Below are positions 46,201 through 49,200 of a DNA stretch of 64,000 bases, one piece after another. The stretch lies in assembly GCF_056712565.1 (NCBI RefSeq), contig NZ_CM160072.1; one strand, 5' to 3'. Every line of letters starts with the position of its first letter. Position 1 is the stretch's first letter. Made by a program: the position numbers.

Positions 46201-49200
46201 TTAATGGTCTCGAAGGTGCGACCGCTGGTGGCGGAGGTATAACCACCATGTATATAAAGCTGCTGTTCTGCCATTCGGGACATCACGTTTCCTCGGTTAA
46301 TCGGTGGGTAAATGCTGAGTAATAAAGTGACGGGTCAGCGAGTGTGCGAGAGGTTTATCCAGCGCTTTGCCGCTCAGTGCCGCGCGCAGCCATAATCCGT
46401 CAATTAGCGCGGCAAGGCCGTAGCCCGCTTCCTGTGCCTGTTGGCGCGGTAACTCGCGGCGAAATTCGCTCACCAGATTCGACAATAAGCGGCGGCTACT
46501 GACCTGCTGCAAGCGATAGAGCATCGGCTGATGCATACTGCTGGCCCAGAAGGCCAGCCAGGCTTTCATCGCCGCACTGCTCACCTGGGTTTCATCGAAG
46601 TTTCCGCCAACAATCGCCTGTAATCGCAGCTCTGCACTGCCCTGCGGAAGTGCATGTAATCGATTCAAAACCGCGTCACGCAGCTGACTGGTGATATCGC
46701 GCATGGTTGCTTCCAGCAGACCATTTTTGTCCCTGAAATAGTGGCTGATGATCCCCGTAGAAACGCCTGCACGGCGGGCGATCTGCGCGATCGTTGCATC
46801 GTGCATGCCCACTTCATTTATTGCTTCCAGCGTGGCGTCGATCAGTTGTCTGCGCCGGATCGACTGCATCCCCAATTTGGGCATTTTCGCCACTCCATTA
46901 ATCAGCGTTGTTTATCTATTAAAGCGGTTATTGATTGGACGTTCAATATAAAATGTGTCTTAATTGTTACTAATTTGATTTTAAATGGTAACAATAACAG
47001 TGGGGATACTGGATGACAGACCTTTCACACAGCAGGGAAAAGGACAAAATCAATCCGGTGGTGTTTTACACTTCCGCCGGACTGATTTTGTTGTTTTCCC
47101 TGACAACGATCCTGTTTCGCGACTTCTCGGCCCTGTGGATTGGCCGCACGCTGGACTGGGTCTCTAAAACCTTCGGTTGGTACTATCTGCTGGCGGCAAC
47201 GCTCTATATTGTCTTTGTAGTCTGTATCGCTTGTTCGCGTTTTGGTTCGGTGAAGCTCGGGCCAGAACAATCAAAACCGGAATTCAGTCTGCTGAGTTGG
47301 GCGGCGATGCTGTTTGCTGCCGGGATCGGTATCGACCTGATGTTCTTCTCCGTAGCCGAACCGGTAACGCAGTATATGCAGCCGCCGGAAGGCGCGGGAC
47401 AGACGATTGAGGCCGCGCGTCAGGCGATGGTCTGGACGCTGTTTCACTACGGCTTAACCGGCTGGTCGATGTATGCGCTGATGGGCATGGCGCTCGGATA
47501 CTTTAGCTATCGTTATAATTTGCCGCTCACTATCCGCTCGGCGCTGTACCCGATCTTCGGTAAACGGATTAACGGGCCGATAGGTCACTCAGTGGATATT
47601 GCTGCGGTGATCGGCACCATCTTCGGTATTGCCACTACGCTCGGTATCGGTGTGGTACAGCTTAACTATGGCTTGAGCGTGCTGTTTGATATTCCCGATT
47701 CGATGGCGGCGAAAGCGGCACTGATCGCCTTGTCGGTGATCATCGCCACTATCTCGGTGACATCCGGTGTCGATAAGGGCATTCGCGTGTTATCGGAACT
47801 CAACGTTGCGCTGGCGCTGGGATTGATCCTGTTCGTGTTGTTTATGGGCGACACCTCGTTCCTGCTTAATGCACTGGTGCTGAATGTTGGCGACTATGTG
47901 AATCGCTTTATGGGCATGACGCTCAACAGTTTTGCCTTCGACCGTCCGGTTGAGTGGATGAATAACTGGACGCTCTTCTTCTGGGCATGGTGGGTGGCAT
48001 GGTCGCCGTTTGTCGGCTTGTTCCTGGCGCGTATCTCGCGTGGGCGTACCATTCGCCAGTTCGTGCTGGGCACGTTGATTATTCCGTTTACCTTCACGCT
48101 GTTATGGCTCTCGGTATTCGGCAATAGCGCGCTGTATGAAATCATCCACGGCGGCGCTGCATTTGCCGAGGAAGCGATGGTCCATCCGGAGCGCGGCTTC
48201 TACAGCCTGCTGGCGCAGTATCCGGCGTTTACCTTTAGCGCCTCCGTCGCCACCATTACTGGCCTGCTGTTTTATGTGACCTCGGCGGACTCCGGTGCGT
48301 TGGTGCTGGGGAATTTCACCTCGCAGCTTAAAGATATCAACAGCGACGCACCCGGCTGGCTGCGCGTCTTCTGGTCGGTGGCGATTGGCCTGCTGACGCT
48401 AGGCATGCTGATGACCAACGGGATATCCGCGCTGCAAAACACCACGGTGATTATGGGCCTGCCGTTCAGCTTTGTGATCTTCTTCGTGATGGCGGGGTTG
48501 TATAAATCTCTGAAGGTAGAAGATTACCGCCGTGAAAGTGCCAACCGCGATACCGCGCCGCGACCGCTGGGGCTTCAGGATCGCCTGAGCTGGAAAAAAC
48601 GTCTCTCGCGCCTGATGAATTATCCGGGCACGCGTTACACTAAACAGATGATGGAGACGGTCTGTTATCCTGCAATGGAAGAAGTGGCGCAGGAACTGCG
48701 GTTGCGCGGCGCGTACGTGGAGCTAAAAAACCTGCCGCCGGAAGAGGGACAACAGTTGGGGCATCTGGATTTGTTGGTGCATATGGGCGAAGAGCAGAAC
48801 TTTGTCTATCAGATTTGGCCGCAGCAATATTCAGTGCCGGGCTTTACCTACCGCGCACGTAGCGGGAAATCGACCTACTACCGGCTGGAAACCTTCCTGT
48901 TAGAAGGCAGCCAGGGCAACGACCTGATGGACTACAGCAAAGAGCAGGTGATCACCGATATTCTCGACCAGTACGAGCGGCACCTTAACTTTATCCATCT
49001 CCATCGTGAAGCGCCGGGCCATAGCGTGATGTTCCCGGACTCGTGATTGTTATTGCATAAAACCGCGCCATGTCTGCATATGGCGCGGTTTCTCTTACCT
49101 CTTGATACGTTATATCTGTGTACAGTTAAGCCCTTAGTATCGATTGATGATTGCCAGGCAACAGATAATAAAAAAGAAAAGAACTATTGAAGCCCAAAAC

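Follow-up and report, generated by a model that had tools for sequence, protein, structure and literature searches.

The closest described counterpart of the element studied here is betO, the BetI operator of Escherichia coli K-12 (Lamark et al. 1996; Rkenes et al. 1996; J Bacteriol 178:1655, 1663; cited in PMC5934670 and PMC11007814), with which our locus shares the species, the genes and a spacer of 128 bp. The name betO is used for this operator in PMC11007814. Genomic SELEX returned the betI/betT spacer as the single target of BetI in E. coli K-12, and gel shifts also detected binding, at the resolution of the spacer (PMC5934670). In a model of the BetI dimer, 34.6 Angstrom separate the two helix-turn-helix motifs, close to one turn of DNA (PMC11007814). 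In gel shifts E. coli BetI stays bound to DNA in the presence of choline (PMC5934670; PMC2628434), whereas BetI of Acinetobacter baylyi is reported to be released (PMC7876524). In Ruegeria pomeroyi, the DNase footprint of BetI1 contains ATTGACG-CGTCAAT (PMC12442346), which has in common with the E. coli box the 14-bp ATTG...CAAT palindrome, the location upstream of betI, the overlap with a -35 element and choline as the effector. The inner six bases differ, being ACG-CGT in Ruegeria and GAC-GTT in E. coli, where the core is imperfect (G for A at 46938).

Two further systems are useful for comparison. The synthetic promoter PBetI of the E1-BetI NOT gate has AATTGATTGGACGTTCAATATAA, which corresponds to 46929-46950 of our sequence preceded by one A, and a promoter-library primer of this gate carries AATTGATTGGACGTTCAATATAATG in the promoter region (PMC7058928). 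PBetI was engineered as an output promoter for one gene, whereas the bet spacer holds two natural divergent promoters. In the original design by Stanton et al. in 2014, the operator reportedly lies between the -35 and -10 elements and not on the -35 hexamers. The tetR-tetA pair with tetO shares with bet a TetR-family repressor gene divergent from a transporter gene, a palindromic operator over both promoters, and autoregulation. There are two tetO sites in tet, unlike the bet spacer, which has one box. In tet the inducer releases TetR (PMC2628434), whereas choline reportedly does not release E. coli BetI in vitro (PMC5934670). The bet module thus resembles tetR/tetO in its layout but probably not in inducer release.

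The window, that is, the whole 64-kb stretch of DNA analyzed, carries the glycine-betaine genes betA, betB, betI and betT. The initial annotation had placed a 128-bp divergent betI-betT spacer at 46885-47012, and the two start codons confirm these limits: the betI ATG appears as 'cat' at 46882-46884 on the plus strand and the betT ATG is at 47013, with starts that agree with RefSeq. The genes and the spacer are as follows.

43109-44797, minus strand: betA, choline dehydrogenase, downstream in betIBA (1025 bits and annotation)
44811-46283, minus strand: betB, betaine-aldehyde dehydrogenase, downstream in betIBA (911 bits and annotation)
46297-46884, minus strand: betI, choline-responsive TetR-family repressor, first gene of betIBA (NCBIfam and RefSeq)
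46885-47012: betI-betT intergenic control region of 128 bp, with divergent genes on either side
47013-49046, plus strand: betT, BCCT-family choline transporter (NF007399 and RefSeq annotation)

All four bet ORFs score above the curated NCBIfam cut-offs. BetI reaches 302.8 bits against the equivalog model NF001978 (cut-off 118) and 261.1 bits against the equivalog TIGR03384 (cut-off 201.3), BetT reaches 1315 bits against NF007399 (cut-off 695), and the cut-offs for BetB and BetA are 593 and 732, respectively. Residues 8-120 of BetI match many TetR-family NCBIfam models, indicating an N-terminal TetR-type helix-turn-helix, and Pfam domains PF00440 and PF13977 were found on close BetI homologues. 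The same four gene starts are present in RefSeq record NZ_CP033092.2 (E. coli ATCC 11775), which is 100% identical to the window. All 77 related loci with enough upstream sequence share the divergent layout of betI and betT, and their spacer measures 126-129 bp in 38 loci and 136-300 bp in the others. No RNA family was detected by Rfam in the bet region.

The initial annotation had also proposed that a dyad in this spacer is a TetR-family operator common to both promoters, and had quoted the string tattgattggacgttcaatata for it. SELEX, identity with K-12, the sequence of the synthetic BetI-repressed gate, conservation and the start-site positions all support the proposal, and the string does contain the operator. 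The elements of the control region are listed below, with promoter hexamers that are putative.

46907-46911, minus strand: approximate betI transcription start (PMC3798270 supplement), position 46911 being 7 nt downstream of the putative -10
46917-46953: conserved block with the betI -10, a T-rich flank, the BetI box and an A-rich flank (ATTAAA.C..TTtTTG-box-ATAAAA)
46918-46923, minus strand: putative betI -10, TTTAAT (ATTAAA on the plus strand), placed by the start site; 46918-20 and 46923 at least 95% conserved across 72-73 distinct spacers
46929-46950: string tattgattggacgttcaatata, with an inner exact dyad kept in 11 of 77 related spacers
46934-46947: core of the BetI box (betO), ATTGGAC-GTTCAAT, 13/14 against the cross-taxon consensus ATTGAACGTTCAAT
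46935-46940, plus strand: putative betT -35, TTGGAC, left box half, separated by 18 bp from the downstream CTTAAT and at -36 to -31 of the K-12 betT start
46941-46946, minus strand: putative betI -35, TTGAAC, right half of the box, 17 bp from TTTAAT (46923-46918)
46953-46995, plus strand: ArcA-P site, four direct repeats spaced by 11 bp, extending over the betT -10, start and early leader
46959-46964, plus strand: putative betT -10, CTTAAT, placed by the start site; conserved in the 126-129-bp spacer class
46971, plus strand: position equivalent to the K-12 betT transcription start (PMC3798270 supplement)

The element at 46934-46947 is very probably betO, the single operator of BetI between the divergent betIBA and betT, with the core ATTGGAC-GTTCAAT and T-rich and A-rich flanks. 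We computed the gene identities, the exact identity with K-12, the deep conservation of the box and its constant placement next to betI, while BetI binding to the spacer, the use in a synthetic promoter and the start-site and ArcA coordinates come from papers; from this material we infer which hexamers serve as -35 and -10 and that BetI acts by promoter occlusion. A comparison with published bet operator sequences had been suggested at the outset. Alignment with NC_000913.3 revealed no difference from K-12 over 46909-46970, a stretch that includes the box and both putative promoters, and the MG1655 spacer as a whole has four single-base differences (46900, 46908, 46971 and 46987). Two of these lie inside the ArcA site, and one of the two falls on the betT start position itself, which is G in K-12 and T in this strain (46971).

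Within tattgattggacgttcaatata the symmetry can be read in two registers. Its sole exact dyad is TATTGA (46929-34) and TCAATA (46943-48) with an 8-nt gap, and the second register is the gapless 14-mer ATTGGAC-GTTCAAT at 46934-46947, with 6/7 pairs. This 14-mer, ATTGGACGTTCAAT, has the form ATTGaAC-GTTCAAT, agreeing at 13/14 positions with the consensus from 13 distant loci and at 6/7 symmetric pairs, and starts 49 nt from the ATG of a genuine betI (spacer position 50). In 5000 dinucleotide-preserving shuffles of the 128 bp, a gapless 14-mer with at least 6/7 pairs arose in 29%, and a perfect inverted repeat with 6-nt arms and a 0-12 nt gap in 47%. Neither register exceeds chance on its own statistics in this AT-rich spacer, so that it is conservation and the literature that argue for a real element. 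The box core has its sole exact match within the 64-kb window here, and a window-wide search allowing up to 3 mismatches gave 14 matches against 14.2 expected, which gives no sign of a second BetI site. The near-matches at 13782-13795 and 49216-49229 do not rise above chance.

Scanning 46700-47200 with the sigma-70 consensus found no promoter and no terminator, CTTAAT remaining below the thresholds. Consensus matches are weak (3/6 for TTGGAC and 4/6 for CTTAAT), and because the bet promoters are too weak for the scan thresholds, their positions were taken from published starts. The supplement of PMC3798270 locates the K-12 ArcA site at 328627-328669 (U00096.2), or -18 to +25 of the betT start, so that +1 is 328645; for betIBA the same site is given as '42 to 88', which puts the betI start at 46907-46911, an approximate position. 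The offset from K-12 to the window, set by the match of the ArcA-site sequence, is 281674 and puts the betT ATG at 47013. Relative to the K-12 starts (PMC3798270), the box spans about -37 to -24 of betT and about -36 to -23 of betI, overlapping both promoters. Its halves would then sit on the -35 hexamers of betT (TTGGAC) and betI (TTGAAC), as judged from the published start positions. Rkenes et al. are said to have found in 1996 a 21-nt BetI footprint over both -35 boxes, a 41-bp fragment reportedly being enough for binding.

Conservation of the box was examined in an Enterobacterales sample of 77 orthologous betI-betT spacers with the search pattern ATTG-N6-CAAT. The pattern is present in all 77, at 47-53 nt from the betI ATG, despite spacer lengths of 126-300 bp. 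The only strongly variable position of the 77 boxes is 46938 (G in 48, C in 14, A in 14 and T in 1), which is position 4 of the putative betT -35, and the half on the betI side is invariant in 77/77. Identity of at least 95% was found at 46918-20, 46923, 46925, 46928-29, 46931-32, 46934-37, 46939 and 46941-52 (box-anchored profile and MAFFT), and the mean majority fraction is 0.915 within the block 46917-46953 versus 0.598 outside it. Because the box-anchored profile is partly circular, with 8 columns set by the search pattern, a motif-independent MAFFT alignment was made of the betI-proximal 110 nt, and it found the same conserved block. Within E. coli, 5139 of 5178 records have the 41-mer 46915-46955 at 100% identity.

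The box extends well beyond this order, being present in 12 of 13 distant betI loci. Of the 13 loci, which are from beta- and gammaproteobacteria, 10 have the consensus ATTGAACGTTCAAT upstream of betI, either perfect or with a single mismatch; the taxa with it include Yersinia, Proteus, Burkholderia, Acinetobacter, Vibrio, Pseudomonas and others. In the distant loci, the 5.2 kb upstream of betI hold 10 matches of at least 13/14 and the remaining 66.7 kb hold none. The betI homologue of Azospirillum ramasamyi, which adjoins ABC-transporter genes, has no recognizable box (best match 7/14). A doubled ATTGATTG motif on both sides of the box was observed in Acinetobacter baumannii (cttgttATTGATTGAACGTTCAATCAATaacaag) and Caballeronia (ATTGATTGACCAATCAAT).

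These comparisons bear on the choice between the two registers. It is very unlikely that the operator symmetry is the exact dyad TATTGA-N8-TCAATA, with half-site centers 14 bp apart, even though this is the only perfect inverted repeat with 6-nt arms in the spacer and the doubled ATTGATTG of A. baumannii and Caballeronia suggests that an outer ATTG could have a role in certain lineages. Only 11 of the 77 Enterobacterales spacers retain the exact dyad, against 77/77 for the gapless box, because the left arm reads TTTTTG in most species (63/77, with TTATTG in 10/77). Distant loci keep the gapless 14-mer instead, an equivalent perfect-arm repeat occurs in 47% of shuffles, and the 14-bp center spacing does not fit the modelled separation of 34.6 Angstrom between the helix-turn-helix motifs, which the 14-bp palindrome would fit better. 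The exact dyad within tattgattggacgttcaatata is thus not the conserved symmetry; the pattern of conservation points to the gapless ATTGGAC-GTTCAAT. We consider it similarly improbable that the two registers overlap in function, with the extra ATTG at 46930-46933 (giving ATTGATTG) as a second half-site and choline shifting BetI from one register to the other. The doubled ATTG/CAAT motifs in A. baumannii and Caballeronia are a parallel, and Ruegeria BetI2 uses two overlapping boxes (PMC12442346). If it were true, a choline-driven shift of register would explain the old puzzle of an induced E. coli BetI that stays on DNA.

Less probable still is that the palindrome is a by-product of back-to-back -35 hexamers, with BetI recognizing another sequence of the spacer or the A/T tracts. 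Opposed adjacent TTGnnn hexamers are palindromic by construction, both halves of the box begin with TTG, and the flanks are conserved as strongly as the core; part of the conservation could be promoter constraint and not operator. Against this stand the fixed departure from the -35 consensus (TTGAAC/TTGGAC, central ACGT) and the one base beyond each hexamer (A46934 and T46947) that is kept in 77/77 spacers. Furthermore, in Pseudoalteromonas, Vibrio and Photobacterium the 14-mer lies only 11-23 nt from the start of the betI tblastn match, a position impossible for a normally spaced -35. The box sequence is also found in the output-promoter region of a synthetic BetI-repressed gate (PMC7058928), and a homologous palindrome is footprinted by BetI1 in Ruegeria (PMC12442346). 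Finally, a functionless chance dyad in an AT-rich spacer is the least credible explanation, for although shuffles yield equivalents at the rates given above (29% and 47%) and the window matches with up to 3 mismatches occur at the chance rate (14 versus 14.2 expected), conservation at a fixed position in 77/77 and 12/13 loci already contradicts it, as do the identical 41-mer in 5139 of 5178 E. coli records and the published binding (PMC5934670, PMC7058928).

A separate element lies directly beside the box. The four-repeat ArcA site of K-12 betT is ATGTGTCTTAATTGTTACGAATTTGATTTTAAATAGTAACAAT, with in vivo binding known from ChIP (PMC3798270), and 46953-46995 is this published site within the ArcA box arrays described by Park et al. 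(2013, PMC3798270). The window matches it at 41 of 43 positions and has the TGTTA-like direct repeats at about 11 bp, the binding itself being taken from PMC3798270. TTGTT at 46964-68, the strongest of the repeats (DR2, 10 bits), shows at least 95% conservation. The ArcA site accounts for anaerobic repression and not for choline control, which distinguishes it from the BetI box. An inverted repeat at 46963-75 and 46983-95 could have been a second operator or a leader hairpin, but this reading was set aside, because the repeat lies inside the published ArcA site and its left arm would be only partly transcribed from a start at 46971.

With betO as the operator, BetI, presumably as a dimer, would bind the box over both -35 hexamers and hinder RNA polymerase at both promoters at once, because the half-sites coincide with the two hexamers. 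Binding would repress the transporter gene, both enzyme genes and betI itself. This repression would be relieved by choline, according to the literature without BetI leaving the DNA in vitro in E. coli, and ArcA-P at 46953-46995, directly on the betT side, would add anaerobic repression.

The betO found here is already known, real and conserved. The bet region has been described since 1996 as an example of overlapping divergent promoters that respond to BetI, ArcA and osmotic control, and the BetI operator is already a standard part in synthetic biology, so that the element has little weight as a discovery. The practical yield is a base-level map of the bet control region in this strain, together with evidence for the gapless 14-mer as the functional symmetry over the exact dyad in tattgattggacgttcaatata. 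The cross-taxon consensus (T-tract, ATTGAACGTTCAAT, A-tract) could serve for the annotation of BetI sites.

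The window belongs to the E. coli ATCC 11775 chromosome, and a 501-bp query around the finding was 100% identical to NZ_CP033092.2. With this query the bet locus was present in 5180 of 5426 complete E. coli genomes; the control region had no match in 246 of the 5426. In the same genome collection, 10 matches to the control region lay on plasmid records, large K-12 plasmids among them. Four bet genes were identified, each above its curated NCBIfam cut-off:

43109-44797, minus strand, betA
44811-46283, minus strand, betB
46297-46884, minus strand, betI
47013-49046, plus strand, betT

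The betI start codon ends at 46884 (minus strand) and the betT ATG lies at 47013 (plus strand), which confirms the 128-bp divergent spacer (46885-47012) described in the initial annotation. K-12 and the window do not differ over 46909-46970; four differences fall in the spacer, at 46900, 46908, 46971 and 46987. The 41-mer 46915-46955 showed 100% identity in 5139 of 5178 E. coli records. Just downstream of betA are the tyrosine invertase ipbA (= fimX, hbiF) and the LuxR-type hyxR (40352-42039). The betA-ipbA interval (42040-43108, about 1.07 kb) and that from the betT end to pdeL (49047-49923, about 0.88 kb) contain no annotated gene. At about 1-4710, beside yagU, the vat vacuolating autotransporter toxin gene adjoins an integrase fragment and an IS1 transposase with a frameshift, an arrangement that resembles the border of an ExPEC-type island. 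The sole Rfam match in the window was IS009 (RF02111, 194 bits) at 5796-5996 (plus strand), in the ykgJ-yagU gap.

A dyad had been proposed as a TetR-family operator in the betI-betT spacer, and it is indeed observed, within the string 46929-46950. The only exact dyad of this string pairs TATTGA (46929-46934) with TCAATA (46943-46948) across a gap of 8 nt. A second register is the gapless 14-mer ATTGGAC/GTTCAAT (46934-46947), here called the BetI box, with 6 of 7 pairs symmetric. Neither register is unusual for so AT-rich a spacer; among 5000 dinucleotide-preserving shuffles, 29% held an equivalent gapless near-palindrome and 47% an equivalent perfect-arm repeat. Matches to the box with at most 3 mismatches numbered 14 in the 64-kb window against 14.2 expected, which is the chance rate, the only exact match being 46934-46947 itself. 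A near-match with 3 mismatches, also at chance level, lies inside the betT-pdeL gap (49216-49229, TGTGAATGTTCAAT). Since both shuffles and match counts are at chance level, dyad statistics prove nothing, and the case needs comparison and literature.

Scanning a BetI alignment against one genome per species gave 80 loci (BetI identity 71-94%), 76 of which, with the window, supplied 77 definable Enterobacterales spacers. betT is divergent from betI in 77/77, with spacer lengths of 126-300 bp. ATTG-N6-CAAT is present in every spacer (77/77), constantly at a distance of 47-53 nt from the start codon of betI regardless of spacer length. The right half GTTCAAT is invariant, and the left half is ATTGGAC in 45 boxes, ATTGCAC in 14, ATTGAAC (a perfect palindrome) in 12 and one of three Tatumella/Pantoea forms in 6. 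The sole freely varying box position is 46938 (G 48, C 14, A 14, T 1; n = 77). Because 8 columns of the box-anchored conservation profile were set by construction, the comparison was repeated with no anchoring on the motif, by MAFFT alignment of the 110 nt nearest betI; the conserved block was again 46918-46952, with TTGTT (46964-46968) in addition. The spacer of an uncultured Erwinia MAG has the box region in partial tandem duplication (ATTGAACGTTCAATATAAAATGTTGACTGAACGTTCAATATAAAGTG).

The region upstream of betI was also searched for ATTGAACGTTCAAT at 13 betI loci from large plasmid or chromid records. Perfect matches (14/14) were found in Yersinia, Burkholderia, two Acinetobacter and Pseudoalteromonas CuT4-3, and 13/14 matches in Proteus, Photobacterium, Vibrio, Pseudomonas and Pseudoalteromonas NC201. 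Indioceanicola has 12/14 and Caballeronia two overlapping boxes at 11/14, while Azospirillum has no recognizable box upstream of betI (best match 7/14). Distant boxes usually lie between a T-tract and an A-tract. In a control count, 10 matches of at least 13/14 fell within the 5.2 kb lying upstream of betI and 0 within the remaining 66.7 kb of these loci. These matches and the control indicate that E. coli carries, with one mismatch, a box kept from beta- to gammaproteobacteria. Individual loci have features of their own. In Acinetobacter baumannii CP040048.1 (about 2351-2384) a perfect 34-bp palindrome surrounds the box (CTTGTTATTGATTGAACGTTCAATCAATAACAAG); in Caballeronia ATTGATTGACCAATCAAT comprises two ATTG-N6-CAAT boxes offset by 4 bp; the Azospirillum ramasamyi betI homologue (48% identity) lies beside choline and betaine ABC-transporter genes.

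Start sites and an ArcA site from the supplement of an ArcA ChIP study (PMC3798270) place the following elements in the spacer:

46971, plus strand, equivalent of the betT start
46935-46940, plus strand, putative betT -35 TTGGAC, then an 18-bp spacer and -10 CTTAAT (46959-46964)
about 46907-46911, minus strand, betI start
46946..46941, minus strand, putative betI -35 TTGAAC, then a 17-bp spacer and -10 TTTAAT (46923..46918)
46953-46995, ArcA site adjoining the BetI box, 41/43 matches to the published K-12 sequence

The ArcA site given for betT in that supplement has four direct repeats and occupies K-12 (U00096.2) 328627-328669, at -18 to +25 of the betT start and '42 to 88' for betIBA (PMC3798270). 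It accounts for the longest inverted repeat of the spacer (46963-46975/46983-46995, ATTGTTACTAATT/AAATGGTAACAAT), which lies within it. Across Enterobacterales, conservation of its strongest repeat, TTGTT (46964-46968), is 95% or higher. Position 46971 is T in ATCC 11775 and G in K-12, and the betT start in ATCC 11775 may differ by a base or two. A generic promoter scan called neither the betT nor the betI hexamers, which are weak matches.

We infer that the two halves of the box are the two -35 hexamers; 46938 is also position 4 of the betT hexamer, and the half forming the betI -35 is invariant. The palindrome could be merely two opposed -35 hexamers, a reading weakened because A46934, T46947 and a central ACGT are conserved beyond -35 needs, and because the same box lies just 11-23 nt from the start of the betI tblastn match in Vibrio, Photobacterium and Pseudoalteromonas. 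It is further weakened by the box sequence in the promoter region of a synthetic BetI-repressed NOT gate, whose promoter-library primer contains AATTGATTGGACGTTCAATATAATG, matching 46929-46950 after one leading A (PMC7058928). The exact dyad TATTGA-N8-TCAATA as operator register is contradicted, being present in just 11 of the 77 spacers and absent from 66; the left flank of the box is TTTTTG in 63 and TTATTG in only 10. A modeled BetI dimer, with helix-turn-helix motifs 34.6 Angstrom apart (PMC11007814), is also a better fit to the compact box of 14 bp than to arms with centers 14 bp apart. Chance as the origin of the dyad is ruled out by conservation.

Rkenes et al. (1996) reportedly found that BetI protects 21 nucleotides over both -35 boxes and that a fragment of 41 bp is enough for binding. 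The element is the already known E. coli BetI operator, named betO (PMC11007814), and genomic SELEX in K-12 found the betI/betT spacer to be the single BetI target (PMC5934670). Conservation and literature thus support the proposed TetR-family operator, with its register corrected to ATTGGAC/GTTCAAT. BetI, a member of the TetR family, would sit on the 14-bp box and on the A/T tracts flanking it. Choline is the inducer; in published gel shifts it did not dissociate BetI, which was still bound at the spacer (PMC5934670, PMC2628434). ArcA-P at the adjoining site adds anaerobic repression. Bound BetI would cover both -35 elements, so that betT and betIBA, betI itself included, would be repressed together.
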